Assembly: GCA_028820635.1 (NCBI GenBank)
Contig: JAPPIG010000108.1
Location: 113,733 to 177,732, forward strand
DNA length: 64,000 nt
Direction: 5' to 3'
From: Candidatus Poribacteria bacterium
Lineage (GTDB): Bacteria; Poribacteria; WGA-4E; WGA-3G
Position 1 is the stretch's first letter. Each line of letters begins with the position of its first letter. The translations under genes and the position numbers were made by a program. The notes under the pieces were generated by a model that did no database searches, had not been told where the DNA came from, and saw only the letters and a program-made list of their open reading frames with translations. Positions 8,349 to 43,077 of this stretch are shown here, piece after piece.

Positions 8349-11300
8349 CTACTTCGCTAAAGACTCGTAGTAATTATCAACAAGTCTACGATATTCAGGT
8401 GGAACATCCTCTTTCGCAACCTGTGCCAACTGTTTCATCTCTTGAAGCATATTGAGTCGTTCCTCTATAGCAGATTCCAGTTTCTGCAGGTCACGGATAA
8501 CGAGTTCATATTTCGGGAAGGGACGATTCCGATTTCCCGGAGGGGTCTGCATAGCATCAAGCATACCAAGCCACAACTCTTTAATCTCCTGATAGGATTC
8601 AGCACCGCCGCGAGCCAAGTCATTTTCATTTTCGCCTTGCCCTTGTTGTCCCTCTTGTCCAGGCTGTTGTCCTTCTTGCCCTTCCTGTCCGGGTTGTTGG
8701 CCTTGCTGGGCATTCTGCATAGCTTGCTGTGCTTGCTGCATCCGTTCCAGAAGCTGCTGCTGCTGTTCAGTGAGTTGCTGCTGCCGTTGTTGCTGTTCCT
8801 CTGTCTGCTCCTGTCCCTCCATCCCTTGAAGTTCACGATCCATATCTTGCATCTGTTCTTCAAAGTTTTGAAGTTGATCCAGGGCAGCTTCAAGTTGTTC
8901 CTCTTCAGTTTGCGCCATATTGGCTCTCGCCTGTTGAAGATCGGCTTGTGCTTCCTCTAATGTTTCAATCACCTCTTGCTGATTTAGGTCTGCGGACTGT
9001 AAGCTGCGCCATTGCAATGCGCGCTGTGCTGTTGCCATATCTTCCGCAGTCTGTTCTTCGTTGAGTCTTCTTGAAGCATCGCCAACATTTTGGGCAGCCT
9101 CAGGATTATCTTGATTGAGTTGCTGCTGAAGGTCACCCAAATCATTTTGAAGTGACTCTAAATCCTGTTGTAGCTGACGCTGCTGATTTGCGAGTTCAGA
9201 GGCTTGACGATAATCTTCAGGACGCATACCAGATTGCTGAGACTTATTCCTCAGTTCTTGTGTCTGCTGTTGCACACCAGATTGCTCCGCAGTCAACTGT
9301 TGGAGTTGTTGAGATGCTCTCTCTAACGCGTTGTCAGTGAATTCAGCGTCGGCTCTTTCAAGTTGATCGATGGCTTGTTCAAGCTTTTCTTCCGCTTTTC
9401 CACCCTTAGCGGCACTCATTTGGGGTTGTTGTTGTTGCATCCCTTGCGAAGCCTGTTGCATCTGTTCGCTTGCCTGTTGCATGGCTTGTCCCGCTTGACC
9501 TAAACGTTGTTCTTGTGTGCCTTGCGCATTACCTTGCATCTGGCTGAGTTGTTCTGACATCTGCTGTGCTTGCTGTGACAATTGTCCTTGCTGCTGACTG
9601 TTCTGTTGCATGTCACTTGGAGACGGTTGATTTTCTTTGCTCATTTGCTGGCTTTGTTCATTCAAATTCTGCTGTTGTGCCAACATTTCGCGTGCTTGTT
9701 CTAACATCTGCTGCGTCTGTTCCTGCAGCTCGCGCTCAAGTTCTTCTTGATCTTGTTCAAGCTCGCTTTGCAACTCCTCCATTTCCAATTCAAAATTTTC
9801 AGCAAGAGACGGATCCTCACTTTGCCTCGCTTGATTAAGTATTTTGGGTATTTCAAGATTAACTTTGATGAGCAGTTCAAGAGCTGCCTGTTCTGGTGGG
9901 ATGGCTACCAGTGGTTGAATAGCATCGAGATTACCTTTTGCTTCGCCCATCTTATCAATCGCCTCTTCAAGGTTCATCATAATTTCTGGGTCAACCTGCA
10001 TTTCCTGCATATCAAAGCTAAGCTCATCTGCCACACGTTGCGTTTTATCTTTCACTTCACCTTGCTTCTCACCGGTTTTCTTAACAGCAGAGTTATATTC
10101 TTCTGTAAGCGTTGAAGGTTGTGCGTTGGTGTGCTTCCATGTTTCTCGAATAACCTGCTTCTGAGAAGCGATTAACGTAAGGAATGGATTCGGTGTACCT
10201 ATTTCACATTCTCCCCCTTCTTCAAGTCTGCGATTGAAAGGGTTCACTTCTATGAAATAAATCTCGCTGCTTGCTTTACCGGGTCCTGTAAGGGTGTTAT
10301 TGTCAGTGGCATGTGCATAGTAAGAGATGACTTCACCCGGTTCAACATCAAATTCTTCCAAATAGAAGGTATAGGCACCAGTTTTAAGGTGTTTGCTATA
10401 TTGCCCATCAGTTTTTTCCGCAACAGGTTCACTGGTAGATTCCAAGGCAAGTTCCTTCAATTCGCCAGAACCGATGCGATACATTAAGTTAAACTGTTCA
10501 ATCCCGTAGTCATCTGTAGCCCCAGCAACGATTTTGACCTCTTCCAGTTTTGTTGCACTCACATCGCGACCGGGTTCTTTGATAACCACTACAGGGGCAT
10601 TATCTGGCATTGCTTTGATAGTATACTCAATCGGCACCTCATTATTGAACCCATCAATACAGAAAAGTTCAACAGTATATTGTCCATCTTCAGCAACTTC
10701 TAAGGTTTTCGTGAGTATATTACCGTCAGCAATGACCATTTCTGAGGATTTTAAAGCAACCGCTTCATTCGCACCCTCTTCTTCAACTACGGTTTCAGAT
10801 TCTGAATTTTGGTGCGTAAACGTTGCATTCTGGATAGCCTTATTCGCAGTGAGTCTGACTTCTGCGGTTGTGCCGACAACTGCTTGAATGTCTCCACTTC
10901 CTTGCTGCACAACCGGTTTGAGATTTGTATACTCAGGATAAGTATAAGAGACGGAAATTTCTTCCAATCGCGGCATTTCAAAAACTTCTACTGTGTAGCG
11001 TTCAGATGTCGTTTCATTTGCCACAACATAGTATTCCATATCCGCGTTAACATTGAAAATCTCATAAGCAAATCCGCGTTTATCCTCCGGATTCTGCACC
11101 ATATTAATTTCTTGCTTGCTACCCTCGTTTTCTGCAGTAGGCGGCGTATTCTTGTCATAATAAGCTAAGACAACCTTTTCTGCATCCTTGCCAGTGACGG
11201 TAACCTCAATAGGTAAACTTTTCCCACTTAGAATACGAGCATCACCAGGTGTAACATTCACCTTAGTCGTCAAAATGGGATCAGTTTTTTCCCACGGCGC

Positions 11301-11849
11301 AAATATCCGCATTAGGCTGGTATGTGTTTCGGTAGGAAATAGAAGCGTAAGCAACCCACACGCTGCAATAACTAAAGTTGCTATACCGACAAATTTTCGC
11401 GTCCGACTATGATCAATCGTTGCTTTGAAATCAATACCTTTTATCCGTTGCGTCGTATCTTCAAGTAATCGCTGAAGCATGTGTGCTTCAACTGGGTCAT
11501 CTGATTCACGGTCACCGAATTGCACGGCACTCACAAGTCTATCCTCAAGATTAGGATGGCTTTCTTCAACATTGAGCGCAACATCTCGGAGGGTTAGTGA
11601 GGATCTCATCGGTTGAATAAGATATTTGATAAGTAGATATAGCGTCGCACCGATGATACCCACAAGCAGGGCAATACGAACAGCACTTGGCATCGGCATC
11701 AACCAATCAACGATTGATTCTCCAACCAGAATCGCTAAGAAACCTATCAGTACAATAGCAGCCCCTGTCCAGAAGAGGCTACGTTTCCACACACGCCGTG
11801 CATCTAAAATCCTTGTTTGTAATTCTGCATAATTTTCTCTGGTACTCAT
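8349..11849 (-). CDS. Large (1166 aa) membrane-anchored protein with a roughly 500-aa Q/E-rich coiled-coil, low-complexity C-terminal region. Possibly DUF4175-like; that family guess is unverified.
   Basis: Two N-terminal TM helices at about residues 25-75, and a third near 155-175. The central region is beta-rich and Ig-like. The C-terminal half is dominated by Q, E, L and A with heptad-like periodicity. It ends in a conserved-looking tail, PPEYRRLVDNYYESLAK. A single uninterrupted ORF immediately upstream of ppk2. Confidence 0.8.
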   Translation of the reverse strand: MSTRENYAELQTRILDARRVWKRSLFWTGAAIVLIGFLAILVGESIVDWLMPMPSAVRIALLVGIIGATLYLLIKYLIQPMRSSLTLRDVALNVEESHPNLEDRLVSAVQFGDRESDDPVEAHMLQRLLEDTTQRIKGIDFKATIDHSRTRKFVGIATLVIAACGLLTLLFPTETHTSLMRIFAPWEKTDPILTTKVNVTPGDARILSGKSLPIEVTVTGKDAEKVVLAYYDKNTPPTAENEGSKQEINMVQNPEDKRGFAYEIFNVNADMEYYVVANETTSERYTVEVFEMPRLEEISVSYTYPEYTNLKPVVQQGSGDIQAVVGTTAEVRLTANKAIQNATFTHQNSESETVVEEEGANEAVALKSSEMVIADGNILTKTLEVAEDGQYTVELFCIDGFNNEVPIEYTIKAMPDNAPVVVIKEPGRDVSATKLEEVKIVAGATDDYGIEQFNLMYRIGSGELKELALESTSEPVAEKTDGQYSKHLKTGAYTFYLEEFDVEPGEVISYYAHATDNNTLTGPGKASSEIYFIEVNPFNRRLEEGGECEIGTPNPFLTLIASQKQVIRETWKHTNAQPSTLTEEYNSAVKKTGEKQGEVKDKTQRVADELSFDMQEMQVDPEIMMNLEEAIDKMGEAKGNLDAIQPLVAIPPEQAALELLIKVNLEIPKILNQARQSEDPSLAENFELEMEELQSELEQDQEELERELQEQTQQMLEQAREMLAQQQNLNEQSQQMSKENQPSPSDMQQNSQQQGQLSQQAQQMSEQLSQMQGNAQGTQEQRLGQAGQAMQQASEQMQQASQGMQQQQPQMSAAKGGKAEEKLEQAIDQLERADAEFTDNALERASQQLQQLTAEQSGVQQQTQELRNKSQQSGMRPEDYRQASELANQQRQLQQDLESLQNDLGDLQQQLNQDNPEAAQNVGDASRRLNEEQTAEDMATAQRALQWRSLQSADLNQQEVIETLEEAQADLQQARANMAQTEEEQLEAALDQLQNFEEQMQDMDRELQGMEGQEQTEEQQQRQQQLTEQQQQLLERMQQAQQAMQNAQQGQQPGQEGQEGQQPGQEGQQGQGENENDLARGGAESYQEIKELWLGMLDAMQTPPGNRNRPFPKYELVIRDLQKLESAIEERLNMLQEMKQLAQVAKEDVPPEYRRLVDNYYESLAK

Positions 11850-15956: not shown

Positions 15957-16511
15957 ATGGAAAGAACACCAGACATTATTCCGATTTACACCATAGGCTA
16001 CGGAAGCCGTTCCATAGCGGAATTTATTGAAGTGCTACAGCAATATGAAATTGCGTATCTCATAGATGTCCGCTCAATTCCGCATTCGGGTTATAAACCA
16101 GAATTTTCTAAAAACCCGCTTGCTAATGAAATGGAAAAGCACGGTATTCGCTATGTGTATATGGGAGACCTGCTCGGTGGGAAGCCTGATGATGAATCGT
16201 GCTACGTGAACGGGATAGTTGATTACGAAAAAGTTAAGGAGACAGAATTCTATCAGCGCGGTATTGAACGTCTTCGGACTGCCTTCTCTCAACAGCAGCG
16301 CGTTGCGCTTATGTGCAGCGAGGGAAAACCTGAACATTGCCACCGAACTAAACTGATTAGTACTACCCTTACTAATCAGGATTTACCTGTCGTTCATATT
16401 GATGAAAACAGTGAGCATAAGACGCAGGAAGAGATTATTGAGCGTATTACGGGTGGGCAGATGAATCTGTTTGGGGAGGAGATGTTTCACTCGCGGAAGA
16501 AACATACTTGA
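15957..16511 (+). CDS. DUF488-family protein
   Basis: The N-terminus (IYTIGYGSRSIAEFIEVLQQYEIAYLIDVRSIPHSGYKPEFSK) matches the DUF488 pattern. Length is 184 aa. Confidence 0.65.
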   Translation: MERTPDIIPIYTIGYGSRSIAEFIEVLQQYEIAYLIDVRSIPHSGYKPEFSKNPLANEMEKHGIRYVYMGDLLGGKPDDESCYVNGIVDYEKVKETEFYQRGIERLRTAFSQQQRVALMCSEGKPEHCHRTKLISTTLTNQDLPVVHIDENSEHKTQEEIIERITGGQMNLFGEEMFHSRKKHT

Positions 16512-16537
16512 GTGACAGATAGAAGATCATTTGCAAA

Positions 16538-17281
16538 CTAATCATTATGTTCTGTGTTTGTGTTCATAAACTCAGAAAATAATTGTTTAGCGTATGCTTC
16601 ACCATTGTGTTTGAGAATTGGTTTTCGAAATAGAAACACAATCAAATTAAGAAAAAACAAAAATCCTAAGATAAGAATAAGGACTTTATTGTCTTCAACA
16701 GAGTGCCATCCTATGAAGATACCAATGATACAAACAGGCATTGCAACCAATGTGCCACCAATCAAATTCCTAAACAACCCAAACCAGACATTATGTTTCA
16801 AAACTAAGTATCCATTCTTAACATCCAATCTTACAAAGCCTGCTGCTTCGTGAAGACGTTTTTTGGCATCACTTGGATCTGCTATTTCTTCCTCTTTATT
16901 CAAAAGATCAAACCCAAACCGTTCTGAGACAAACTTTCGGTACTTTTCTTTATAACTGTCTGATAATGAGTTGTCAGCAAATGTCATTAAATACGTAGTC
17001 GGAAATCCATTTGCCTTATCACCAGTAAAATACTGTCTTTGAAAAAACTTAGATATCTCACGTATGATTAAACTATAAATATACAGCAAGACAAATGAAA
17101 GAGTTAATCCCTCTATTCCAATTATCTTAATACTTAGTATGAAGGACACTAACCCCTCAAGTTGTACGTTACCTGAAAGAAAGTACCAAAGCACAAAAAA
17201 CGGTAATGCAGTAAAAAGTGCTGGAAAGAATCGTGCAAAGATTACATAGGTATTACAGTGTTTTTTTATAAATTCTTGCAT
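16538..17281 (-). CDS. Membrane protein of unknown function (4 predicted TM segments: two N-terminal, two C-terminal)
   Basis: 247 aa. It ends 22 bp downstream of the MBL gene on the same strand, so the two are probably co-transcribed. Confidence 0.55.
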   Translation of the reverse strand: MQEFIKKHCNTYVIFARFFPALFTALPFFVLWYFLSGNVQLEGLVSFILSIKIIGIEGLTLSFVLLYIYSLIIREISKFFQRQYFTGDKANGFPTTYLMTFADNSLSDSYKEKYRKFVSERFGFDLLNKEEEIADPSDAKKRLHEAAGFVRLDVKNGYLVLKHNVWFGLFRNLIGGTLVAMPVCIIGIFIGWHSVEDNKVLILILGFLFFLNLIVFLFRKPILKHNGEAYAKQLFSEFMNTNTEHND

Positions 17282-17303
17282 TTGTTCAGATCAGATTTAC
17301 GGT

Positions 17304-18311
17304 TTAATCCTTCAAATCCCAACCAGTGATTTCTTTAAGAAACCAAGCATCATATTCGTCTGAATAAGACGTATCTGAATTATTTTCTTTTGTGTATGCT
17401 CTTGCAAAACTTTCGTTGGTAACATATAGGGATAAATTATTCCCACTACAGTCAACCACCATACAGTTCGCTTGGTTATTAGTGATTTTCTCAAGTTTTC
17501 GGTTGTTCCACGCGGCATATGCTAAATTATCTGAAGGTGCAATCCCAAAAAATGTCATCTTAGGATTTACTGTATCAAGAAATTGGAAGTTCATGTCAGA
17601 GTGTCTACCATGATGAGGAGCTATGAGCAAATCTACATCCTTTACGTAATCTTCCCAGTTTTCCAAAATGTGCTCCCAAGTTTTGTCATGAGAATCACCA
17701 CTCAGAAGTATCCTACCACCTTGCCCAGAGTACAGAATAACGTAGGATGCATCGTTGTAATCATCCTTGTCTTTTGCTTGTTCGATTAAACCTGAAGTTG
17801 GAGATAGAATATAGAGGGCATCTCCAGGAATTTGTCCATTAGTATCTTGTGCCCAATACTTTCCTTTATCACCTGAGTATAATACCAGTCGTTTGGGATC
17901 AGTTTGTGAATTGCTGTCGCGAATATTCTTATAGAAATTCCAGTCTTCTTCATTGTACTTCGAGTCTTCTTCAAAATCCAATTCCTTCTCGTTATCTGTA
18001 TCCCAAAAGTTAATCGGATTAAAGTGCTCAAAAAAATCTTTGATACCATCCATGTGATCCATGTCTGGATGCGTTAGTATAAAACGGAAGACACGACTAC
18101 TAGTAAACTTGTTTAGATATTCAATAGGATTTACTGGATGTTTATTCTGTTGAAAGTTACCTAAGACTCTTGATTTTTCTGTAAAAGTCTGTGTTATCTT
18201 TTCGGCATTACATACATCAATTACCGATACGTGTCCTGAACCATGTTCAATTATTGAACAATCTCCATTTTTTACGTTTAAGAAGTGAAAAGTGTGTGTA
18301 GGCATAGGCAC
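17304..18311 (-). CDS. MBL-fold metallo-hydrolase, ComEC-C-terminal-like
   Basis: The motif THPDMDHMDG is a H-x-D-x-D-H variant of the MBL HxHxDH signature, as seen in the ComEC nuclease domain. A later APHHGRHSD motif is also ComEC-like. Length is 335 aa. Confidence 0.6.
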   Translation of the reverse strand: MPMPTHTFHFLNVKNGDCSIIEHGSGHVSVIDVCNAEKITQTFTEKSRVLGNFQQNKHPVNPIEYLNKFTSSRVFRFILTHPDMDHMDGIKDFFEHFNPINFWDTDNEKELDFEEDSKYNEEDWNFYKNIRDSNSQTDPKRLVLYSGDKGKYWAQDTNGQIPGDALYILSPTSGLIEQAKDKDDYNDASYVILYSGQGGRILLSGDSHDKTWEHILENWEDYVKDVDLLIAPHHGRHSDMNFQFLDTVNPKMTFFGIAPSDNLAYAAWNNRKLEKITNNQANCMVVDCSGNNLSLYVTNESFARAYTKENNSDTSYSDEYDAWFLKEITGWDLKD

Positions 18312-18356
18312 CTCTTTTTAAGTTGTTTAATTTGTTACGGTGAAATCTATTTTAAA

Positions 18357-18505
18357 TAAGACTTACACAAAACATCCGCCATGAATTGACCAAAGCGAAG
18401 GTATATAATACCTTTCATAATTCATGACACAGTATTATGTCGAAAAGGGTGCATAAAATGAAAAAATAGAGAAATATTATCTTCAATGTATATTGTGTAA
18501 GTCTT
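18357..18505. repeat. MITE-like unit bounded by 14-16 bp terminal inverted repeats (aataagacttacacaa … ttgtgtaagtcttaat)
   Basis: A perfect 14-bp inverted repeat sits about 120 bp apart in the MBL-hsdS intergenic region. An internal ggtatataatacc palindrome is also present. Confidence 0.4.
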
Positions 18506-18551
18506 AATAAATTATAACACAATCCAACAAACACTTCAAAATAATCGGCAC

Positions 18552-19926
18552 TTATGCCTCCGTCAACAGAATCTGCTCAACCCTCTCCTTCGCCTGCTCC
18601 ACAATAAAATCCGCTTCTTGCTTAAGTTCTGCAACGCGTGCTAAACGGTTATCAACTTCTGCTACAATCCTATTTTGAACGTCAAGCGGCGGTAAAGGAA
18701 TCTCAAGTGACTGAAATTCTTTTGAATTGATATTAGGTTGTGCAGCGGTCCTTTGAATTAACTGTAGCCATAATTTGTAAACTTTTGTGAAACTATAATA
18801 CAACACAAATGAAGGATTTACTTTTTCGGGATCAAACTTGAATCGAATCATGTAGCCTGCAAAAATAGCCTTACCTAATTCGCTTTTATAGATAAACGCG
18901 CGTCCCACCGATCCACTTCTTGCAAAGAGAACATCATCATCTTCAAGTAGGTATTTAGATTGTATTGTTTCTGCAGTTTTCCAATCATCAAGAAGATTCC
19001 CGTAATCATCTATATCAGTAATCCGAATGTACCGAATGTCTGTTTCAGGGTTTCCATCAATTGCACGCTCGTTTGCGCCATACTGCGGTTTCTTAATCAG
19101 AAGTTTCCCCAATGGAGTCAGAGAATATAGAGTTTTAAGGTTTCTAATGTAGGAAATATTTCTCATGTATAAAGGGTCAACACGCCCTTCAATTTCTCCT
19201 GCATAAACAACAAAGTACTTCTTTTCTTCAACCTCTGGCATCTTAATTCCCAATTCTGTCAGCACATAACAATCAATTGAAGCCAAAGATCCTCTGCTTC
19301 TTGTTCTTTTTGCTTTTTCTGTGCATAAGCAGAACGCATAAAATTGCTGATATGGTTTTGGATGCTGGGCCGAGGGATTGGAATAAGAATCCGCATCAAT
19401 TGATCTGTTGTTATAGCGGGGTAATTTCCGCCACTACTTCGCTGAAGCATTTGATTTAAACAAAATTGACTTCGGAGAACAGAATAAAGATACGTACGAT
19501 TTAGTGTACGGTCTTTGATTTCTCTGAGGACCGCAAATCCTGTTGAAGCAATGCAGCCATCTAAATCATTATCAATCAGCGCAATAGAACCGTGATGAGG
19601 CCTCGTTAGACTGATAATAATGTCATCTTTGTGAACTATATGTTGGGCGCGACTCGGAGCCTCCTTAGTCAAAGTATCAGAATAAGATGCTTCTCCTGTC
19701 TCTCGACTTACGCTACTGATTTCAATGTATCTAAACTTATCTTCTTGGTGTTCCTCTGGATCCCATCTTTGGTGACACAGTTTAGCGATATTTCCTAATA
19801 TTTCATGATTGCTTCGGTGTAAGGCAGAAACTAACTTTTCAAAACGTGGGTGATAGAAGTGTGGATCAAGTCTGTCGCTTATCTCGCCCCGATAGGTGAG
19901 AAAAATCTGATTTTCTCTATCAGGGC
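18552..19926 (-). pseudogene. hsdS: Type I restriction-modification specificity subunit HsdS, frameshifted or split. ORFs 19259..19672 and 18552..19286 lie in different frames, and about 250 bp of the upstream TRD1 are not in frame.
   Basis: ORF1 ends in the central conserved region (IPIPRPSIQ…LWLQL). ORF2 carries TRD2 plus the C-terminal conserved helix (LPPLDVQNRIVAEVDNRL). The two overlap by 27 nt with a 1-nt frame offset, and ORF2 can only start at TTG. The N-terminal part of TRD1 is absent from ORF1. Confidence 0.6.
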
Positions 19927-22194
19927 TTACCCGAAAAAATCTGGGTTCTCAGTAAATTTTCGGTATTCCTTACAGATGGCGTTAAGGTCGTTAATCGGGT
20001 CTTTACGTCCTGTTGCGTCATAACCGATACGTTCAGCGATTGCCATAAAGATTGGATGATTGGCATTTTTCCGAACCCATTCTCGGATGTCCTCTGTGTT
20101 CTTATCAGTCCATTCCTCTTTAACAGCGTCAATCTTTTCCTTGTATGCTGCTTTTATTTTACTTTCCCACTCTGGATCGGCGGCATTTCTGAATGCTGCG
20201 CGGTATTCTTTCTCTAACGTGTTCAGATCGCTTGTTTGTGCCTTAAGTTCTGCACGTGCGGTTTGCGGGTCGAACAATTCAAATTCTGTGGTAGGCGTAG
20301 ACTCAATTTCTGGGAAGAAAAAAGCACTGAGGTCTTGGACCTTTTTGGTTGGTACTTTCTCAAGTTTCTGATTTAAGGCATCAATATTGTCCAAAATTGA
20401 GATGAATTGCTGTCTATAGTTTTCTGTTACGTCAACCTGTGCTGGAGAACCTTTTGCAATAATAGTTTGTCGTTCATTTTCAAGTTCCTCAATCTTGGGT
20501 GTATAGATTGTTTTATTTTTACTCTCGATTTGATCAATTGCATCTTGATAGCGTTCAAATTCCTGTTCCGAAAACTTTTGGAGGAATAGGATAGACGTTT
20601 TCACACCCGCACCATAATGTGAGAAAGCAATTTGTGGGAGCGAAACAACAGCGAGGATTTTAAAGTGGCGTTCAATGTAATCACGAACATATTGCAGTGA
20701 GGAGTTGGTCAAAATTCCATCTGGTAGGATAATCGCGAGTTTGCCTGTTTTCCACTTGAGAAAATCAAAACAACGTTCAAGAAACAGAATTTCTGTTTTT
20801 TGAGATGTGCCATTTTTACCAAGTTCATAATCTCTAAGATACGGAAGTTCTGACTGTTTGATAACTGCACCGAAAGGTGGATTAGTAAGGATTATATCAA
20901 ACTGATCCTTTTCAAATTCGCTATGCTGGTTGTAGAGGATATCAAAACCGACAAGCGCGTCATTACTGATAACGTTGCTATGCCCATCGTCATGGATAAT
21001 CATATTCATCTTAGCAACGCGGGCAATTGAGTCGTTAACTTCTATTCCGAAGAGACGTTTTTCAGCAAAGTCGTGCCAGTAGAGAAAATGATCACGACTT
21101 TCAGTTTCTTCATCGTAGAACTCGGATGCCTGTTTTCGGATGTAATCCATGGCGTGCAACAGAAAACCACCTGAACCGCAAGCGGGATCGAGGATTCGTT
21201 CTTCATGATCAGGTTTAACCATATCCACCATAAACTCAACCACATTGCGTGGTGTGAAAAACTGCCCGATTTCGCCTTTAAAAAAGTTTCCTAAAAACCG
21301 CTCAAATGCAACGCCTTTCACATCCAAATCGGTTTGGCTGAGACTAATTCCTTGCAAATGATTGACAACAGAAAACAAGAGATTATCATCGATTTCAATA
21401 TTCTCTGTAAATACCTCAGGGTCTAATGTTTTTGCCTCTTGATAGAGGCTGCTAATTCGGTTCGCAACGGATTCCGGTTTTTCATGTGTTTTAATTTGAA
21501 AATCGTAGGGTTTACCTTTTCGTCTCGACTTTTTCTCATCTCTAATTTTTATAAAAAGAATTTTGGCGAGTTCATCAAACGCTTGTGTAGGTGCAAATTT
21601 CCCACCTTGCCAAAGCGTATCGTGGCATTTCTCAAGGACACGGATGAGTTCGCCTCTTTCAATGACAGACAGTTCTGATTGTGGGACACCCTTTAGATAT
21701 CGCCACTCTTGAACTTTGCCATATCTGACTGGTGGATCGGCAATGATGTTTTGTGAACGTTCGCCCGGTTCATGGTTTTTGACATCAAAAGGTCTACGCG
21801 TATTTCCCGCAACGACAACGGCAAAATATCCACCCAAAGAGTTGCAGTTGCCAAAAACCTGTTCAATTGCCTGATTGAATTCTGCGTCAGAAATACCATC
21901 TTTTTTGCATTCAACCACAATAAAAGGGTCTTTCTTATCATCGTCTCGGAAAACGACAATATCGGCAAGATCAGAAGGGGTTCGACGTGGAACAGTTACC
22001 TCTAAATCAATTCGGTTTGGAGGGTATTGATAATGCTCAATTAACTCAACGTAAAATTTTGCGCGGACCTTTTCTTCAGGGTCAGTAAATCTATAATTTT
22101 TGTCGGGGGCTACGTAATGGATTCTTTTTCCATCATTAAGGAATTTGATGTATCCTTTTTGTTCTCCGATTTGGAGAAAGTCAGTTTGGTTCAT
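19927..22194 (-). CDS. hsdM: Type I R-M system DNA methyltransferase subunit HsdM (N6-adenine MTase), 755 aa with N- and C-terminal extensions
   Basis: Has the NPPFG catalytic motif (IILTNPPFGAV) and an AdoMet motif (LDPACGSGGFL). It is followed directly by hsdS. Confidence 0.85.
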   Translation of the reverse strand: MNQTDFLQIGEQKGYIKFLNDGKRIHYVAPDKNYRFTDPEEKVRAKFYVELIEHYQYPPNRIDLEVTVPRRTPSDLADIVVFRDDDKKDPFIVVECKKDGISDAEFNQAIEQVFGNCNSLGGYFAVVVAGNTRRPFDVKNHEPGERSQNIIADPPVRYGKVQEWRYLKGVPQSELSVIERGELIRVLEKCHDTLWQGGKFAPTQAFDELAKILFIKIRDEKKSRRKGKPYDFQIKTHEKPESVANRISSLYQEAKTLDPEVFTENIEIDDNLLFSVVNHLQGISLSQTDLDVKGVAFERFLGNFFKGEIGQFFTPRNVVEFMVDMVKPDHEERILDPACGSGGFLLHAMDYIRKQASEFYDEETESRDHFLYWHDFAEKRLFGIEVNDSIARVAKMNMIIHDDGHSNVISNDALVGFDILYNQHSEFEKDQFDIILTNPPFGAVIKQSELPYLRDYELGKNGTSQKTEILFLERCFDFLKWKTGKLAIILPDGILTNSSLQYVRDYIERHFKILAVVSLPQIAFSHYGAGVKTSILFLQKFSEQEFERYQDAIDQIESKNKTIYTPKIEELENERQTIIAKGSPAQVDVTENYRQQFISILDNIDALNQKLEKVPTKKVQDLSAFFFPEIESTPTTEFELFDPQTARAELKAQTSDLNTLEKEYRAAFRNAADPEWESKIKAAYKEKIDAVKEEWTDKNTEDIREWVRKNANHPIFMAIAERIGYDATGRKDPINDLNAICKEYRKFTENPDFFG

Positions 22195-22297
22195 TTCACT
22201 TGTACCTATCTATTGCTTAACAAAATTATCACGATTATAGAGGTTCTGAAAATGTTTGTCAAGTCCGAAATTACCGAGTTGTTATCAACTCGCTGCC

Positions 22298-23965
22298 TCA
22301 CGAAACTAAAGAACCTGAAGGCATCTCCTGCATCACAGGAATAACATAACTCCGAATCGTTAAACCCTCTATCGTTTCCGTTTCTACCTGCGGCTCTGGA
22401 TTCTCGCGATGATCAAAGACAATGTAATATCCCTCCGTTACGCCCTCAGTATTGAGATATACTGAAAGTTGCTTTTTGCCTGCCTGATAACGATTATCAC
22501 CTCTCCAAATTTTTGTTTCTACGATATATTTTCGCTGATTGTGAGTGATAATGATGTCCATTCTACCTCTGCCGGTCTGCACCTCAATATGCATAAAACC
22601 GCCAATGAGTTTAACAAATTGATCGAGATATGCAAGCAAAAGATGTCTGCCAACAGATTCTTGTGGCGTATCGGGGACTTGTAAAATCCTGAACCCTACA
22701 CGTGCGATAAAATCACGGAAGTTATCAAGTAATGACTCCATATCAATATGTCCGGCGGGTGTGAGATAATCAAGAAAACCTTCGCTATTACCTTCGGATA
22801 AGTAATCTTCTTCCAATCCATTCACAACTGCCTTGAATGCTTGTAAAATGCAATACAGATAAATTGGATTAATTATTTCACACATACCGTCATTACTTCT
22901 GGCAATGACACCATAAGTGGCAAGTTCACTGATAACGTCACTACGTAGATTAAAATCAACACCGTCCTCCCGTGCCATAATTCGCATCAGAACACTTTCA
23001 AAGCGTGGGTCTCTGCGGATATTGGTTGTTAGATGTGTAAGGTTAACGTTATCTTCCTCAAGGAGTTGTGCATGTGCTTTTGAGAAGTGTGCAAGCGTAA
23101 TCGGTTCAGTTTTCGGGATATCCAGTTCTTCGGTGAGAATCTGTGCAAATCGGTTGACAAGCACGGGTTGCCCAGCGGTTTGTTTATGAATGGATGTTAT
23201 AACTTCTGATGCGAAGGGTTGCCCGACTTCATCTGTATATTGCCCAAGCAGTTCCTGAACTTGTTCAAGCGTAAAGTTGGGTAGGTGGAACTCATCTTGG
23301 ATATTGAATGGAGAAATTGAGCGGTCATAGTTGAGCTGCGCAATACTCTTAACCCCGACGATACCGACACTATGTGGACATCGCGGCTTGCCCGCAATAT
23401 AGATATGACGAAGTGTATGCAGAAAATCGCTTACTGCGACTTGAGGAATGCCATCAAATTCGTCAATGACAAGAACAAACTGCTGCCCAGCATACTCAGA
23501 GTCTAAAAAACTCGAGAGCCGTTTAAAAAACGATAACATTGAAAGGTGGTTTGTTAATGTCGTGTTCTCCAAAAATTGATGTAAATTCGCAGAAGGGACA
23601 ATACCACGTTTTTGAAAGACTGCTTCTATTTCTTCACGAATCTGTTCGGACAAATGTGCATAAAATGCCGACAAGTCAAGGTTTTTATAGATGTCAAAAT
23701 TTAGTTGAATAGGGAGGCAGTTAAATTTTGGATCAGATTTGACTTGCGTAGCAGAAGCGTTTGGCATAGTGCCGACAGTGAGAGTTTCTAATGCAGCTTG
23801 GAAGAAGGTCGTTTTGCCTGTTTGACGTGGTGCGAAAAGGACAACATATTTGCCTTGTTCGACACGTTTAATGTAGTCGACAATTTCTTCGGTTCGCGAA
23901 ACGACATAATGCTCTTGAGGGTTTACGGGACCTTGTGTGCCAAAACGTCTCATTTTTTTCTCCAT
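22298..23965 (-). CDS. AAA-ATPase-like protein with a C-terminal PD-(D/E)xK nuclease-like domain
   Basis: Walker A motif (APRQTGKTTF) and Walker B motif (FVLVIDEFD). A C-terminal D…E-x-K arrangement (MDIIITH … YIVETK) suggests a PD-(D/E)xK domain. Length is 555 aa. Confidence 0.65.
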   Translation of the reverse strand: MEKKMRRFGTQGPVNPQEHYVVSRTEEIVDYIKRVEQGKYVVLFAPRQTGKTTFFQAALETLTVGTMPNASATQVKSDPKFNCLPIQLNFDIYKNLDLSAFYAHLSEQIREEIEAVFQKRGIVPSANLHQFLENTTLTNHLSMLSFFKRLSSFLDSEYAGQQFVLVIDEFDGIPQVAVSDFLHTLRHIYIAGKPRCPHSVGIVGVKSIAQLNYDRSISPFNIQDEFHLPNFTLEQVQELLGQYTDEVGQPFASEVITSIHKQTAGQPVLVNRFAQILTEELDIPKTEPITLAHFSKAHAQLLEEDNVNLTHLTTNIRRDPRFESVLMRIMAREDGVDFNLRSDVISELATYGVIARSNDGMCEIINPIYLYCILQAFKAVVNGLEEDYLSEGNSEGFLDYLTPAGHIDMESLLDNFRDFIARVGFRILQVPDTPQESVGRHLLLAYLDQFVKLIGGFMHIEVQTGRGRMDIIITHNQRKYIVETKIWRGDNRYQAGKKQLSVYLNTEGVTEGYYIVFDHRENPEPQVETETIEGLTIRSYVIPVMQEMPSGSLVS

Positions 23966-29131: not shown

Positions 29132-30352
29132 TTATTCTTCAGTCTCATCCTTTTCAAGCTCAAGAAGTAGTTCGTTGAGCACACCATTTACCGTGGGGTT
29201 AGTTTCTTTATTTCTATAATAATCGTCGAGTTTATGCGGTAAATTATCATAGGGGTCTGCTGTTTGAATTTGCTTGATCAGTGCTGGTTTTTTAAGCAAT
29301 TGGACAATAAAAACTCTATCTTCGTGATTAGAGATAGAAATCTCGATGTCTATCAACAACTTGATTAAACGTGATGCCAATCCGTCTGCAAGACCAATTT
29401 CAGCATAGTGACTTAGGGTTTCTACAACAGTCCTTTTCGTGTTAATACTGGAATCGTTGGTTAGCATACTAAACAAGTTATCTACTGCGTTTTTATCAGT
29501 ATGTTTTTCTAATGCTTGGACAATAGCTAACCGAACTGTATCATCAGCGTCCTTAAGTGCCTTGATCATTTTGTCAGTAGACGGTTGATTGAGCAATATC
29601 ATTGATCTCGCGGCGGCTTGGCGTGCTAAAACATTATTATCGGTCAAAGCTGCCTCAATGTCTTTTTGGTATGCTTTATTGCCGAGTCGATATAGGGCGG
29701 AAAGAATCTCTATCTTCAACCCAGTATCCAATACTGTGTTTTTAAGAGATTCTAACCTTTCCTGGGCCGAAGGATCTCCGATATCTGCGATAATACGTAT
29801 CAATCTATCCCTGACTGGAATAGAGGTATCTGCGTTATCTACTGCGGTGAAGAGTTCATCAATGCCTTTGCTGCCGATCTGTGTCAGGATATAGTCGAAA
29901 TCTTTATGGGCATCGGAATACTTTTTTTCAATAAAACTCTTCAAAATGAGTGGTATGACAGGGATACCTTTATCAATTAGGATTTGTCTGACATCATTTT
30001 GAAAGAGATGTCTCTCATTAAGGATTTGAAAGATTTCTTCCGTCTCAGATGTGTTCAGTTCAGCAAGACGCCGTGCCCGTTCATTCCGATATTCGGTTTC
30101 CAAATTGTTGCTCTTTAGCCACGTGGCATCCGCAGAAAGTGCGTAACTATACGCAATTAGCAGGAGTGCCCGAGGTTCATCCTTATTTTTTTCTTCTATT
30201 TCGGCAAGTTTGAGATGGCTAACTGCTTCTATTGCGAGACCAGCTAATAATTTTTGTCTGCCCGGTTTAAGTTCAGGAATGATTTTTTCCTGCTTACAGC
30301 CAAACGACACAACCCATGTTAAAACGAGGCATATCGTTAAAAGTTTTTTCAT
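29132..30352 (-). CDS. HEAT/PBS-lyase-type repeat lipoprotein, paralog 1
   Basis: Lipobox (VSFGC). Repeated about 30-aa helical units with D/N-x-x-V-R-x-x-A-x-x-A-L signatures. Length is 406 aa. Confidence 0.65.
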   Translation of the reverse strand: MKKLLTICLVLTWVVSFGCKQEKIIPELKPGRQKLLAGLAIEAVSHLKLAEIEEKNKDEPRALLLIAYSYALSADATWLKSNNLETEYRNERARRLAELNTSETEEIFQILNERHLFQNDVRQILIDKGIPVIPLILKSFIEKKYSDAHKDFDYILTQIGSKGIDELFTAVDNADTSIPVRDRLIRIIADIGDPSAQERLESLKNTVLDTGLKIEILSALYRLGNKAYQKDIEAALTDNNVLARQAAARSMILLNQPSTDKMIKALKDADDTVRLAIVQALEKHTDKNAVDNLFSMLTNDSSINTKRTVVETLSHYAEIGLADGLASRLIKLLIDIEISISNHEDRVFIVQLLKKPALIKQIQTADPYDNLPHKLDDYYRNKETNPTVNGVLNELLLELEKDETEE

Positions 30353-30646
30353 GTTAACTTCGTTTTCCTCCTAACATCAACGTAAATGTCAAATCTGTGT
30401 ATAGTATAAATTCAGATAGATTAACTTTCGTCGAGAATCCGAGAGATTAGTATACAGAAGTATGATAAAACAGATACATTTTTGTGTCAAGAAAATTTTA
30501 ATATAGCGTTGCTTAAATAAAAACGTAGTATTTACAACGACATCAAAGGAGTTGCCTTTATCCAACAAAATTTGAACCTCTCCCATAATTATGAGAGAGG
30601 TCGCATAATTTAAATCCGTATACAGAATTCACATCTACAGAGAAAA

Positions 30647-31852
30647 CTATTTTCTAATATCGTTGAGTAGTTCATTGAGTTCAACTTTTACAAATGCACT
30701 CTCTTCTTCATTTTGGATATAATTGTAAAGTTTAGTTTCAAGTTCATCATCAAATAACGTTGCTGCCTTTAGCTGCTTCACCATCCGTTTTTTGAGAAAT
30801 TGCACTAACATCAAGCGGTCATCTGAATTGTTCACCTCTTTATTGATAAGTAAATACGTCATGCGACTTGCTAACCCTCTTGTAAGACCGCCGCCTGCTT
30901 CAATATAGGTAGCAAGCGTATTTAAGACAGCTTGCTTCGCTTTTGAGCTATGCTCACTTTTGATTATATTTACAAATGGTTCTACAGCATTTTTGGTTTT
31001 GTGTACAGATAAAGCCTTTGCAATGTCAGTAACTACCTGGGAATCATCGTCTTTAAGTGCCGTGATAAGCATGCTTGTGTTGACATTTTTAAGGTTAGCC
31101 ATTGCTTTTGCTGCAGCACGTCGCACCTCTACTTCATTTGCTGTTAGTCCTGCAAGAATTTCAGTTTTATATTTTCTATCACCGAGTTGATAAAGGGTCG
31201 TATAAACTGCCATTTTGAGCGCATCGCTCATGCCGGTTGTATCAATAGATTTTAATCTTTCAGCCGCTTTCTCATCCCCAATTTCGCCGAGCACCTGAAT
31301 TAGTTTCATTTTTATAGCAGGATTCACCTCTGCATCGGCTATGCTATCTAAGATAGGCTCAATCGTCTTAGTTCCCATTTGCTCAAGTGCCGAAATAAGA
31401 TTCTTCTGTATATCTGGATATAAACCTTGGGCAAGATTATCAATTATTAAAATAGCAGCGTCTGTTCCTTTCTGAACCAATGCTTGAAACCCAGCTTGTT
31501 GGATTTCCGAACGTTTGTTGAGAATTTCGATCATTTTGTTGATCTCTGCTTCATTCAAGGCTGCTATTCTTTGAGTTTTCTGTTTTTTATATTCTGATTC
31601 AAAATCCTGTCCCTTTGTCGCATCTGATGCAAGCGCGTGTGAGTATGCTATTACGAGCAGTGCACGCGGCTCTGTTTTATCTTCCTCTTTTTTCTCTGCC
31701 TCTATGAGAAGATTAATAGCTTCAACAGCGTTTCCACTTTCAATAAGTTTATCTCGCCCAACCGACAGATAACTGGGACCTTTCTGTTTCGTATCACAAC
31801 CAAAGCAAATAAATAAGATTAAAATCAGTGGAATAATTGCAAGATTTTTCAT
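30647..31852 (-). CDS. HEAT/PBS-lyase-type repeat lipoprotein, paralog 2
   Basis: Lipobox (CFGC). Same architecture as the neighbouring gene, with shared blocks such as EPRALL(L/V)IAYS(Y/H)AL(S/A)(A/D)AT and VR..AA.(S/A)M. Length is 401 aa. Confidence 0.65.
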   Translation of the reverse strand: MKNLAIIPLILILFICFGCDTKQKGPSYLSVGRDKLIESGNAVEAINLLIEAEKKEEDKTEPRALLVIAYSHALASDATKGQDFESEYKKQKTQRIAALNEAEINKMIEILNKRSEIQQAGFQALVQKGTDAAILIIDNLAQGLYPDIQKNLISALEQMGTKTIEPILDSIADAEVNPAIKMKLIQVLGEIGDEKAAERLKSIDTTGMSDALKMAVYTTLYQLGDRKYKTEILAGLTANEVEVRRAAAKAMANLKNVNTSMLITALKDDDSQVVTDIAKALSVHKTKNAVEPFVNIIKSEHSSKAKQAVLNTLATYIEAGGGLTRGLASRMTYLLINKEVNNSDDRLMLVQFLKKRMVKQLKAATLFDDELETKLYNYIQNEEESAFVKVELNELLNDIRK

Positions 31853-32270
31853 AAAACCTTCTGTGTGCCTCCCATAACAAATTCAAGCCAAATTTCAGAT
31901 AACCAGTTTGAATGTCAAATTAACCGATATATAGATAATCCAAGGTGCTCAAACTTTTGCCTAATGAACACTCAGTACCAAACGATTCACGATAATCACA
32001 AACTTTACAAGTAGTTCATGTTATAAAAAATACCACAAAAAACCAGAAATGTCAAATCAAATACAGGGTTATTCAGTTTCTATATTTTTTTACAAGTGTT
32101 TATTTTTATGAAAAGCAGATATAGTGTGTTTTTTTTACCCCATATCTGCTATACATAAATATTAACAACTGTGATAGAAACTGCCCGAAAAACATAAAAC
32201 TAAATAACCCTGGAGAGTTTCTTGTTGGAAGGCTTTGTAAGCCCGATTTATTACCCAAAGTAGGCGCGTT

Positions 32271-32398
32271 TTTTAAACGCGCCGAACTCAGACATTAGAT
32301 GCTATAAATGGCGCGTTTACAAAACGCGCCTATCATGTGGGGCAAGACTTAGAAAACGCCAAATCAACGCTGAATGCGCGTTTGCAAAACGCGCTTAC
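32271..32398. repeat. Cluster of three REP-A hairpins (GGCGCGTTT-ACAAA-ACGCGCC-TAYC type) in a 640-bp AT-rich intergenic region
   Basis: The three units are ggcgcgttttttaaacgcgcc, ggcgcgtttacaaaacgcgcctatc and tgcgcgtttgcaaaacgcgcttacc. Confidence 0.65.
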
Positions 32399-32495
32399 CA
32401 CAAGAAGGTTTGAGTTAATTTGAAATGACATGTCTTTCAAGATATGGTATCATGAAGAAGTAAATTTAAAATATACAAAAGGAGCGGTCCCGTAA

Positions 32496-33320
32496 ATGGC
32501 GGATCAATCTTCTAAAAGTTGGGCAGAATCGTATATCAATGACGGATATTTATTAGTTCCAGACCTCGTTACACCGCAAGAATGTGAAGAAATCAAATTA
32601 GAAATGCTAAAAATCTTTCGTGGCGATTATGAATGTAAAGCGATTCCGTCAATGCCCGAAAATGCGACAGAAACTGAGATATTGGATCGGATTATGTGTG
32701 TCGGTGAACCACATACATTTAGTCCGCTCGTCCATCGTTATGTTGAACATCCAAAAATCTGTGCGGTGCTCCAAGAGATAGTCGGTGCGCATATCCCGTT
32801 TTGGGATGGCGGTATAAAGTGTATGCAGTCCATGATGTTGGGTAAGGTGCCAGGACATACGGGTAATCCGTGGCATCAAGATGAACACCCGATACCGACG
32901 CGCGACCGATCACTTGTCGGTGCTTGGATTGCCTTGGATGATGCCACTATTGATAATGGATGTCTGTGGGTATTGCCCAACAGCCATCGTTCCGGCGTAA
33001 TTTATGATCGGCACCCGCATAATAAACGCGACGAGTTTGACAGTTGCCACGAGGCGATGGGTTTTGATGATTCTGATGAAATCCCAATTGAGATGACTGC
33101 CGGAAGCGTTCTCTTTTTCAACGGTTACCTTTTACATCGCTCTAAGAAAAACCGGAGCGATAGTTATCGTCGTGTTTTGGTAAGCCATTATTGTTCAACA
33201 GCGTCGTGGATTGGATGGAAGGGACAACGTAATTATCGCGGTGTGATCGTTGTTTCAGGTAATGATCCTTATTCTGACGAAGGTTATGTTACGCCAAATG
33301 CTTGGGCGCGTTGGGAATAA
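32496..33320 (+). CDS. Phytanoyl-CoA dioxygenase (PhyH)-family Fe(II)/2OG oxygenase
   Basis: The N-terminus (SYINDGYLLVPDLV) and an H-x-D … H pattern (WHQDEH … H near LHRSKKN) fit the family. Length is 274 aa. Confidence 0.75.
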   Translation: MADQSSKSWAESYINDGYLLVPDLVTPQECEEIKLEMLKIFRGDYECKAIPSMPENATETEILDRIMCVGEPHTFSPLVHRYVEHPKICAVLQEIVGAHIPFWDGGIKCMQSMMLGKVPGHTGNPWHQDEHPIPTRDRSLVGAWIALDDATIDNGCLWVLPNSHRSGVIYDRHPHNKRDEFDSCHEAMGFDDSDEIPIEMTAGSVLFFNGYLLHRSKKNRSDSYRRVLVSHYCSTASWIGWKGQRNYRGVIVVSGNDPYSDEGYVTPNAWARWE

Positions 33321-34147: not shown

Positions 34148-34155
34148 AACAGATT

Positions 34156-35115: not shown

Positions 35116-35244
35116 AAAATGATAGGTTTTAGTAAAATCTAAATTTACTTTTACAGTTCTTTATAGGTTTGATGCGTTTATAGTAAAATCCAAAATATGT
35201 TCACATTACAATGAATGCTGTCATTGTGAACGTCAGTTATTTCA

Positions 35245-36087: not shown

Positions 36088-36313
36088 TATAGCACGCTTG
36101 AAAAACCGATGCTATTGTAAAACTAATACCAATTCTATAAATTATTTTCTCTTTTGAAAAGAAATGTAAGAGGCGCAATGAATTGCGCGACTACAAAGGG
36201 TCTATTTCTTTAAGAGTAGTTATTTTTTAGGAATGGTATAACAGTAGGAAGCCATTCAGTTTTATGTTTATGAGTATAGAGGCTGCTATGTGCCCTGTTT
36301 AGAAACAACGATG

Positions 36314-36362
36314 CACTAAATCAACACCGAATGCGCGTATGGCATTCGGTGTTGATTTAGTG
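36314..36362. terminator. Perfect 21-bp stem / 7-nt loop hairpin (cactaaatcaacaccgaatgc-gcgtatg-gcattcggtgttgatttagtg). Candidate transcriptional terminator or REP downstream of the ECF cluster.
   Basis: The stem-loop was read directly from the sequence. It lies 86 bp past the stop of the lipoprotein gene at 36448 on the minus strand. It is related to the insert inside the IR-1 copy at 4964-5000. Confidence 0.4.
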
Positions 36363-36447
36363 CGATTACCTACATTTGAATTTTGTATTCAACTCACGTT
36401 ACACTTTAGACAAGTATCTTGAGCAAGACAACAGCTTAATTATAGGG

Positions 36448-36978: not shown

Positions 36979-37005
36979 TGGACTCTCCTTTCAATTTCAG
37001 TAAGT

Positions 37006-39513: not shown

Positions 39514-39562
39514 TTAACAGGAAACTTTGCTTGTGCGTGAAATGTGTTTGCATCTTGGTTTT

Positions 39563-40779: not shown

Positions 40780-40782
40780 CGG

Positions 40783-43008: not shown

Positions 43009-43077
43009 TCAAAACCTCCGTTTTTAAACTCCGAAATAACAATAAATCATGAGCGTCAAACTTCATATATTTTTCTT

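Follow-up and report, generated by a model that had tools for sequence, protein, structure and literature searches.

The window analysed here is a stretch of 64,000 nucleotides of a Candidatus Poribacteria bacterium (contig JAPPIG010000108.1, positions 113,733 to 177,732), which belongs to a 194-kb scaffold of a metagenome-assembled genome (ENA ERZ23495530). Members of Candidatus Poribacteria are sponge symbionts. The subject of this report is a restriction-modification (R-M) locus of the window, in which a gene for a nuclease-methyltransferase protein (RM) is followed by a specificity gene (S) that lies in the -1 frame. The junction between the two looks like a site of programmed -1 frameshifting, from which both free RM and an RM-S fusion would be made. 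The whole explanation proposed for the locus, to which a probability of about 0.6 is assigned, is that a Type IIB-like RM enzyme obtains its specificity module by this frameshift, and that its neighbours, a pair formed by a metallo-beta-lactamase (MBL) fold protein and a transmembrane (TM) protein on one side and an AAA ATPase gene on the other, are separate from it.

A sequence-only reading of the window had described an hsdM gene and a split hsdS gene with no hsdR. All the genes named in it were found, on the minus strand except for a DUF488 gene on the plus strand (Table 1), and there is indeed no HsdR in the window; the supposed HsdM, however, is a fusion protein with its own nuclease domain, a point beyond that reading. 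Its 755 amino acids comprise an HSDR_N_2 domain of the PD-(D/E)xK nuclease type (Pfam, 2.6e-15; aa 39-138, nt 21781-22080), placed N-terminal to a gamma-type N6-adenine methyltransferase (N6_Mtase, 3.2e-41; aa 291-574, nt 20473-21324). The nuclease residues D78 and E95-C-K97 (nt 21901-21969) show no variation among 14 homologues, the least similar of which has 71% identity, nor do motif I of the methyltransferase, DPACGSGGF (nt 21163-21189), and motif IV, NPPF (nt 20872-20883), I preceding IV. The best match in the PDB is the Type IIB enzyme RM.BsaXI, with an E value of 1.5e-44 versus about 1e-24 for Type I HsdM; the best PADLOC match is MTase_I PDLC03030 (6e-139). No HsdM_N domain was detected in RM with Pfam, the hsdM model TIGR00497 gives 60.7 bits against a cut-off of 242.75, which places the protein outside the HsdM type, and the scores obtained with models of Type I, MADS and BREX systems are all far under the cut-offs. 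Since nuclease and methyltransferase are found in one polypeptide, no HsdR is needed, and its absence is expected rather than anomalous. No HsdR-like helicase (ResIII/Helicase_C) is present among the open reading frames (ORFs) of at least 490 amino acids in the window or elsewhere in the region, nor is any HsdR adjacent to RM in about 90 related RM loci examined. Membership of the Type I R-M systems was consequently rejected, given the lack of HsdR in the region, the lack of HsdM_N and the presence of the nuclease domain. MADS was also considered, since MAD2 shares a nuclease-like N-terminus and a methyltransferase and MAD5 is an S subunit, and was rejected as well (MAD2, 308.7 versus 720 bits; MAD5, 55.5 versus 400; no other MAD genes). 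Judged from its domains and motifs, RM is probably a self-sufficient Type IIB-like R-M enzyme, for which cleavage is predicted. As a separate observation, RM proteins of the Poribacteria type carry an estimated 170 extra residues or so (approximately aa 575-740; window 20473-19930), placed after the methyltransferase core and ahead of the conserved C-terminus, and this insertion is missing from relatives of about 600 amino acids.

Three-frame translation of the S region reveals two frame breaks, one in the middle of S, at 19285-19287, and the other at the RM/S junction. At the latter, the S frame can be read without a stop from 19948 on, and its first part overlaps with the last part of the RM gene, relative to which it is shifted by -1; this feature is absent from the sequence-only reading. 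There is no ATG, GTG or TTG in this frame until 19672, well inside the first target recognition domain (TRD1). A -1 shift on the heptamer T_TTT_TTC would join ...NPDFF to RVSPDRENQIFLTYRGE... The heptamer, either as T_TTT_TTC or as T_TTT_TTT, is found in register, with the stop codon at the same position, in all 18 distinct junctions, which come from two clades with about 55% RM identity; the base before it is T, be the codon GAT, CCT or TCT. The same arrangement of heptamer, one codon, stop and start-less -1 S ORF of about 460-480 codons occurs in relatives at the miaA locus (L083, L085 and L170; L numbers designate the loci compared) and at other loci (L088, L089, L171 and L173), and the S ORFs are full length in most heptamer-type loci. 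A sequencing or assembly error at the junction was rejected, since the break is conserved across hundreds of sequences. Among the best 120 homologue clusters (70-92% identity), FF-x-stop is the ending in about 108, and the junction cassette is found in more than 100 sponge-metagenome clusters. None of this conservation in many genomes had been noticed from the window alone.

The second clade, which includes some human gut metagenome contigs, reads CC T TTT TTC GTC TAA, after which comes CCCCCG...; here too, S is in the -1 frame and has no start close by. Its RM clusters have 1351, 823 and 287 members, most of the full-length members listed being 602 or 618 amino acids long, and one exact protein is found on at least 1000 contigs. 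The names Ruminococcus, Oscillospiraceae and Clostridia attached to this clade are labels given by the sequence sources. A comparison of the second-clade junction DNA with plasmids gave no match. The fused members of 850 amino acids in cluster 4 have another junction and are uninformative on frameshifting. A different organization is found in ATG-type relatives (about 45 homologues, with about 57% identity), in which S has a normal ATG of its own, placed at the RM stop or overlapping with it (MECFAV...), and heptamer and hairpin are both lacking.

Naturally fused alleles provide a direct comparison with the predicted product. The allele P0122 (L172), with a run of seven T, reads PDFFRVSPDRENQ, which is exactly the predicted junction, and the allele P0121 (L086), with eight T, encodes 1210 amino acids in frame. 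The peptide FFRVSPDRENQIFLTYRGE of S part 1 is shared with both of these fusions, and in-frame fusions of RM with S or with half of S recur elsewhere in the RM family. In the Poribacteria-type group, 11 sites vary in the stretch from the heptamer to where the hairpin ends, and 7 of them fall on third codon positions of the S frame. This stretch lies upstream of any start codon, and the bias fits translation in the S frame there.

Directly after the stop codon, the RNA can fold into a hairpin, with a minimum free energy of -25.1 kcal/mol in the window (z -3.5). The stem begins 6 nt past the heptamer in 18 of 18 distinct heptamer-type junctions. The 52 nt past the stop have a mean energy of -21.3 kcal/mol (z -3.9) in 15 heptamer-type loci versus -6.1 (z +0.1) in 32 ATG-type loci. 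The RNAalifold consensus contains 14 pairs, in which 93% of the cells are paired, compared with 46-63% when the partners are slid by 1-3 columns; seven pairs show compensatory changes, and the covariation score is 0.459 against 0.168 or less in the slid controls. A covariance model of heptamer plus hairpin, run on about 1 Mb of related and unrelated loci, matched RM/S junctions only. With Rfam, at gathering thresholds, no match was obtained in the whole window.

An X_XXY_YYZ heptamer followed by a spacer, a stem-loop and a start-less -1 ORF is the classical layout of bacterial -1 programmed ribosomal frameshifting (PRF), as in dnaX and the IS3 family. In the mechanism proposed here, a fraction of the ribosomes would slip by -1 on U_UUU_UUC and read S as a C-terminal extension of RM, the slip being stimulated by the hairpin 6 nt downstream of the heptamer. 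Ribosomes that do not slip would terminate one codon later and release free RM, so both RM and RM-S would come from one mRNA. Combined one to one, RM and RM-S would contribute two RM units for each S, in line with the (RM)2S composition of BcgI and BsaXI. Extended to the whole family, this means that a widespread Type IIB-like clade, comprising thousands of sequences from sponge-symbiont Poribacteria and from the source-named Ruminococcus, Oscillospiraceae and Clostridia, would make its specificity module only through -1 frameshifting and, with free RM and RM-S produced in a set ratio, build (RM)2S from a single ORF pair, a proposal that appears reasonably likely.

The window copy has a further peculiarity. 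The mid-S break lies between TRD1 and TRD2, where the window reads GAT CTT TGG (CTTTGG, three T) and the five relatives aligned (L083, L085, L086, L088 and L089) read CTTTTGG (four T). The frameshift in S announced by the sequence-only reading is thus real, and an error of sequencing or assembly was rejected: the Logan assembly SRR10996926 is identical to the window over 6.2 kb (100%), including the S region. This second assembly is taken to represent the same sample, given the identical sequence and the run and sample numbering. The break is a lineage-specific 1-nt deletion, and the two Methylase_S domains that it splits are contiguous and intact in L083, L085, L088 and L170-L173. S part 1 consists of a linker (RVSPDRENQ) followed by TRD1 and a portion of the central helix; owing to the deletion, its end reads WLQLIVMC*. 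In this genome, therefore, the trans-frame product RM-S' is predicted to be truncated at about 978 amino acids, with TRD1 and only a shortened central helix, and TRD2 would be left in a separate half-S ORF. This S part 2 consists of TRD2 and the C-terminal conserved helix, and could start as a half-S at TTG 19286 (244 aa) or ATG 19241 (229 aa), the latter length being that of the Logan gene call. Judged by eye, S part 2 closely resembles TRD2 of L083 and L086, and natural RM-half-S fusions of about 990 amino acids carry a TRD similar to TRD1. The RM gene and the junction cassette of the window are intact.

Among characterized systems, the Type IIB enzymes BcgI (A2B) and BsaXI ((RM)2S, PDB 8w0p) are the closest in design. 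Like them, the present system combines an N-terminal PD-(D/E)xK domain and a gamma-class N6-adenine methyltransferase in one polypeptide, and has a Type I-like S with two TRDs (split in the window by the deletion) and no helicase subunit. Unlike in those enzymes, S is here start-less and placed in the -1 frame behind a heptamer and a hairpin, with an RM-S fusion predicted beside free RM; moreover, the window RM has the insertion described above, and two-sided cleavage is here a prediction from the genes. The single-chain Type IIB/IIG enzymes AloI, TstI and CjeI share the R-M-S order of the trans-frame product, which would reach about 1214 amino acids were S intact, and are resembled by the in-frame alleles P0121 (1210 aa) and L156 (1076 aa). 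In contrast to these enzymes, most alleles of the present family keep a stop between RM and S, and both RM and RM-S are predicted. As for known -1 PRF cassettes (dnaX with A_AAA_AAG and a stem-loop, IS911/IS3, and the phage tail chaperone G/GT), the common features are the in-register X_XXY_YYZ, the 6-nt spacer, the stem-loop, the 0-frame stop right after the site and two products, predicted here, that share their N-terminus and are made in a set ratio. The differences are the heptamer itself, U_UUU_UUC/U, and the host gene, which encodes an R-M enzyme. The junctions show the heptamer register, a conserved structure 6 nt downstream, within the 5-9 nt expected of such a cassette, and a -1 ORF under purifying selection without its own start, with the exception of L154. 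No paper on recoding in R-M systems or specificity subunits was found in a literature search; the sole related mention, in the GeneTack survey and in a review on recoding, is of phase variation in Type III methylases.

Several observations weigh against the frameshifting explanation. Both the slip and its ratio are deduced from sequence. Few lineages, in essence two or three clades, contribute independently to the covariation of the hairpin, the consensus structure comes from the very alignment in which the covariation was scored, and a conserved peptide is encoded by the stem as well. The hairpin is retained in the fused alleles L172 and L086, which are in frame, and could partly be due to constraint on the coding sequence or to a recent origin. 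In the heptamer-type locus L154 (7794-7815; T_TTT_TTT GTA TGA), an S-frame ATG overlaps the RM stop (ATGA), which makes independent initiation of S possible in some members. Finally, S is broken in the window copy, which may be inactive, may work with split S halves or may have a changed specificity. As a side observation, the L154 junction may represent an intermediate between translational coupling and frameshift-dependent expression.

Other ways of joining S to RM or of making it separately must be weighed in this light. The RNA polymerase could slip on the T6/T7 run, ribosomes could terminate and reinitiate at a start codon of a non-canonical kind, or the run could be phase-variable in the DNA itself. 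The site is a homopolymer, in-frame alleles with seven (L172) and eight T (L086) exist, and to the ATGA overlap of L154 may be added a GCATAA clade with ATA at the same position. On the other hand, each of the 18 junctions has a run of six (or of seven, as UUUUUUU), and hundreds of proteins share one stop position, unlike what is seen in phase-variable tracts; no near-cognate start is consistent across clades, and a hairpin placed 6 nt after an in-register heptamer has no obvious role in any of these mechanisms. Six T is also short for efficient transcriptional slippage in bacteria. Together, such mechanisms are considered unlikely. The decay of a Type I system, as the sequence-only reading had suggested, with HsdR lost, hsdS pseudogenised and hsdM surviving as an orphan methylase, appears very improbable and largely mistaken. 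The window does lack HsdR, the best PADLOC model is labelled 'MTase_I', and the deletion in S is the sole sign of possible decay. Nonetheless, RM has an HSDR_N_2 domain with invariant catalytic residues, it lacks HsdM_N, its closest solved relative is RM.BsaXI, and the related loci examined contain no adjacent HsdR. A junction break that more than 100 clusters share with a second, distant clade, and that is followed by intact S ORFs, is incompatible with decay. Programmed -1 frameshifting in a Type IIB-like enzyme is accordingly the explanation preferred here.

Downstream of S lie the genes of the MBL protein and the membrane protein. The presence of a ComEC-type MBL gene and a four-TM protein, together with an AAA ATPase with a PD-(D/E)xK-like C-terminus and a DUF488 gene, had been read correctly from the sequence and was confirmed by Pfam, PADLOC and AlphaFold2 (AF2) models. 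In the MBL protein, the motifs HPDMDH (nt 18054-18071), SGDSHD (nt 17685-17702) and APHHGR (nt 17604-17621) are invariant among homologues. Its AF2 model (mean confidence score, pLDDT, 86.5) has no TM segment, and its best fold in the PDB is the beta-lactamase-like domain of ComEC (9ic4, E 8e-13), followed by phosphodiesterases such as Pce and by RNase Z/J. With ComEC/Rec2 it shares the MBL fold and the conserved metal-binding motifs; the match to TIGR00361 (profile positions 494-629), however, reaches 25.7 bits against a cut-off of 190, and the 333-aa protein has none of the channel domains (DUF4131/Competence), which places it outside this family. In PADLOC it matches PDC-M48B (PDLC04673, 5.1e-31) and thus qualifies as a B component of PDC-M48. 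Weak profile matches to LmuA, RTasMBL, Avs1a and 6A-MBL also relate it to the MBLs associated with Avs, Lamassu and DRT, from which it differs in having no protease, STAND, reverse transcriptase or SMC partner. Avs1a (22 versus 420 bits) and 6A-MBL (46.9 bits versus the NF058524 cut-off of 220, with no E1/E2/JAB partners in the window) were rejected as identifications. The protein is probably a ComEC-like metal-dependent nuclease effector. Avs-associated MBLs are Zn-dependent double-stranded DNA nucleases (PMC12642450).

The membrane protein has two TM helices, a helical soluble domain and two further TM helices, in an all-helical AF2 model (pLDDT 86.6). It has no Pfam model and no PADLOC match even at E <= 10; two homologues match DUF2207_C below threshold. 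No PDB fold matches it significantly; a stator-like nature was rejected as unsupported, the best PDB folds, of the MotA/PomA/ExbB kind, being obtained only at E >= 0.2 and TM scores <= 0.3. In the proposed arrangement, the MBL nuclease would be a cytoplasmic effector held or controlled by the membrane protein as a sensor or anchor.

The MBL family is large, with 1919 detectable homologues (55-83% identity among the 120 listed) in phyla that include bacteria of the candidate phyla radiation (CPR), Chloroflexota, Clostridia and Legionella, and it occurs in 453 genome loci, mostly without an RM of the present kind. The co-occurrence that the sequence-only reading had put up for checking was borne out in the loci surveyed for neighbours (L003-L082), in which the MBL gene adjoins a membrane protein in about 67 of 80. 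The 247-aa family is directly beside it in about 45 of the 80, usually upstream and a few bases apart, and an unrelated protein of about 165 amino acids, the PADLOC PDC-M48A, in about 22. An alignment of the two membrane families gave an hhalign probability of 3%, that is, no relationship, so the window protein does not qualify as an A component. A second MBL paralogue of about 270 amino acids (PDC-M48B model PDLC04674) was observed in about 20 of the 80 loci (e.g., L006 10960-11760, L037 6073-6852), where the two MBL genes share about 39 nt at the 3' end of the first one and TM-MBL-MBL2 triplets result; no such paralogue is present in the window. The flanks of 72 MBL loci contained 116 large ORFs, with 7 matches to Type I methyltransferases, 4 to S subunits, 5 to E1/E2/JAB, about 15 to recombinases or transposases and 2 to AbiEii-like ATPases. 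Against a defence interpretation, it should be said that this survey had no matched background control. As judged from E1/E2 (ThiF, Prok-E2_A) or JAB flanks, some members of the family sit beside ubiquitin-like '6A-MBL'-type systems. The family is also found in 53 plasmid records (10 conjugative, 28 mobilizable and 15 non-mobilizable). In plasmid pRUNSL03 of Runella slithyformis (L168), the pair has a Dcm/MvaI R-M system on one side and a protease-MBL module on the other. This conjugative plasmid has three MBL modules in a row (29164-44156): MBL with SEC-C, a 236-aa hypothetical protein with MBL, and MBL with a 1363-aa serine protease.

PDC systems have the status of candidates, put forward through their 'guilt by embedding' within loci of the R-M, BREX and DISARM kinds. 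With PDC-M48 (a membrane protein A of about 165 aa and an MBL B), the window pair shares the match of its MBL to B, the two-gene set of membrane protein plus MBL, and the context of a defence or mobile island. It differs in its membrane partner, of 247 amino acids, from another family and without a PADLOC model, in its gene order (MBL then TM, elsewhere mostly TM then MBL), and in the absence of the second MBL of many relatives. It is plausible that the pair is an independent defence-type module, a variant of PDC-M48. The suggestion of an independent, undescribed module made in the sequence-only reading therefore holds in its first part, given the conserved linkage and the defence context, and not wholly in its second, since the MBL matches an existing candidate.

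The AAA ATPase gene on the other side of RM encodes a Walker A motif GKTT at aa 50, a Walker B motif VIDEFD at aa 166 and a C-terminal D470...E483-T-K485 of the PD-(D/E)xK type. PDDEXK_9 scores 0.0012, under the cut-off, and the precomputed annotation is DUF8371. There is no PDB sequence relative and no NCBIfam match, and the PADLOC matches, to PDC-S, are weak only. It appears to be a single-gene, variable accessory module of the island, for which a role in defence is putative, as is the anti-phage function of PDC-M48-like pairs; both points count against the wider interpretation of the island.

The distribution of these genes indicates that they are independent of RM. The MBL/TM pair follows RM-S only in the window, L083 and L085. 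The AAA gene occurs in L083, L085 and L088, the last having the order AAA-RM-S without MBL/TM. At the same miaA site, L086 and L170 carry RM(S) with neither the AAA gene nor the pair, and the same is true of L171 and L173, in which RM-S is found at other loci. None of the membrane, MBL or AAA genes was found at 78 more distant RM loci. Because the pair and the AAA gene come and go independently of RM, the island is a hotspot with exchangeable cargo and not one composite system. On its own account, it may be recorded that frameshift-type RM-S genes are followed in other genomes by a CAP12-PCTIR TIR-domain gene (L171 9712-10809) or a DUF2971 gene (L173 9720-10496), the defence-type cargo downstream of S differing between genomes.

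Two alternatives concern the pair. One, already raised in the sequence-only reading, takes the MBL/membrane pair or the AAA ATPase-nuclease as the restriction arm of the methylase, in a new composite system. The shared strand of the genes and the short distances between them, in the window as well as in L083 and L085, speak for it, as do the first discovery of PDC candidates embedded in R-M, BREX and DISARM loci and the Type I M/S genes near some MBL loci. RM, however, already carries a nuclease domain. It occurs with S and without the pair or the AAA gene in four of the loci above and in 78 metagenomic loci, and without the pair in L088; the pair and the AAA gene accompany it in only three or four closely related Poribacteria loci, and MBL/TM is present in hundreds of genomes, mostly without this RM. 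In addition, S is separated from the MBL gene by an AT-rich gap of 240 bp (18312-18551, after the S stop), and the G+C content is 0.355-0.378 in the 2-kb composition windows at about 16000-20000 (MBL/TM genes and S region) versus about 0.42 elsewhere, which fits a separate acquisition of the pair. A composite system is thus extremely improbable. The other alternative, that the pair serves DNA uptake, housekeeping or metabolic hydrolysis on mobile elements, is doubtful, and nevertheless deserves some weight. The best fold match of the MBL is the ComEC nuclease domain, followed by phosphodiesterases such as Pce, and the literature search found neither an experimental test nor a paper mentioning PDC-M48. 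It is opposed by the lack of any ComEC channel or competence domain in the MBL, the patchy spread across phyla, CPR bacteria included, with high identity, the plasmid occurrence next to R-M and protease-MBL modules, the R-M, E1/E2/JAB and recombinase neighbours, and the profile similarity to LmuA, RT-associated and Avs1a MBLs. An independent defence-type module remains the preferred interpretation of the pair.

The flanks of the island are housekeeping genes, miaA and mnmA on one side and a SpoIIE-type phosphatase and PhyH on the other, with the nuo operon further off. The region downstream of miaA is probably a variable defence-type island that holds independent modules. At its edge, the DUF488 gene has homologues at the same locus in L083, L086 and L088, and it is duplicated in L086 (17530-18580) and L088 (11668-13261). 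In L086, the DUF488 copies adjoin a RecQ-like helicase (DuOB/DEAD/RQC/HRDC) split by an IS element, and in L170 the helicase is intact at the same site; DUF488 and helicase may form a module at the island edge. An ORF of 1166 amino acids (window 8349-11849, minus strand), with a weak DUF4175 match only, is kept beside the island in relatives (L083 18679-22158).

Table 1. Coordinates of the R-M locus and its neighbours in the window.
Feature	Position	Strand	Basis or detail
DUF488 gene, island edge	15957-16511	+	Pfam DUF488 3.9e-22; PADLOC PDC-M45B 8.7e-52
Membrane protein, 247 aa	16538-17281	-	Four TM helices by hydropathy scan and AF2 model
MBL-fold protein, 333/335 aa	17304-18305/18311	-	333 aa counted from ATG 18305
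S part 2 (Methylase_S fragment)	18552-19286	-	Pfam Methylase_S 3.4e-13
S part 1 (Methylase_S fragment)	19259-19672 as called; open frame 19259-19939	-	Pfam Methylase_S 1.3e-10
Stem-loop, candidate frameshift stimulator	19886-19926	-	Directly after stop: GCCCUGAUAGAGAAAAU...AUUUUUCUC...CUAUCGGGGC
RM 0-frame stop TAA	19927-19929	-	One codon past the heptamer; codon plus stop form the 6-nt spacer
Slippery heptamer T_TTT_TTC	19933-19939	-	X_XXY_YYZ register of the RM frame (GA T TTT TTC GGG TAA)
RM subunit gene (N6_Mtase protein), 755 aa	19927-22194	-	Pfam and PADLOC
AAA_35 ATPase with C-terminal D...ExK motif, 555 aa	22298-23965	-	Pfam AAA_35 3.2e-11

For the annotation of defence islands, the window teaches that the absence of HsdR is no sign of a novel composite system. 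As regards the MBL/TM pair, the PDC-M48 candidate now takes in a larger clade, in which the membrane protein is a different one, and predicted catalytic residues to mutate, H79, D81, D83 and H84, are supplied. If the frameshifting proposed here is real, it would be the first recoding event described in an R-M system, and -1 frameshifting on bacterial chromosomes would gain a new class that is both abundant and easily tested. The frameshift would also explain how the 2:1 subunit ratio of a two-subunit Type IIB enzyme is fixed at the level of translation. Many annotations of the kind 'orphan methylase + start-less S' would then correspond to intact restriction enzymes. This would correct a systematic mis-annotation in which RM is taken for an orphan Type I methylase and S is called from internal starts or as a pseudogene, and which would affect the defence censuses (PADLOC, DefenseFinder, REBASE) of sponge and other metagenome-derived genomes.

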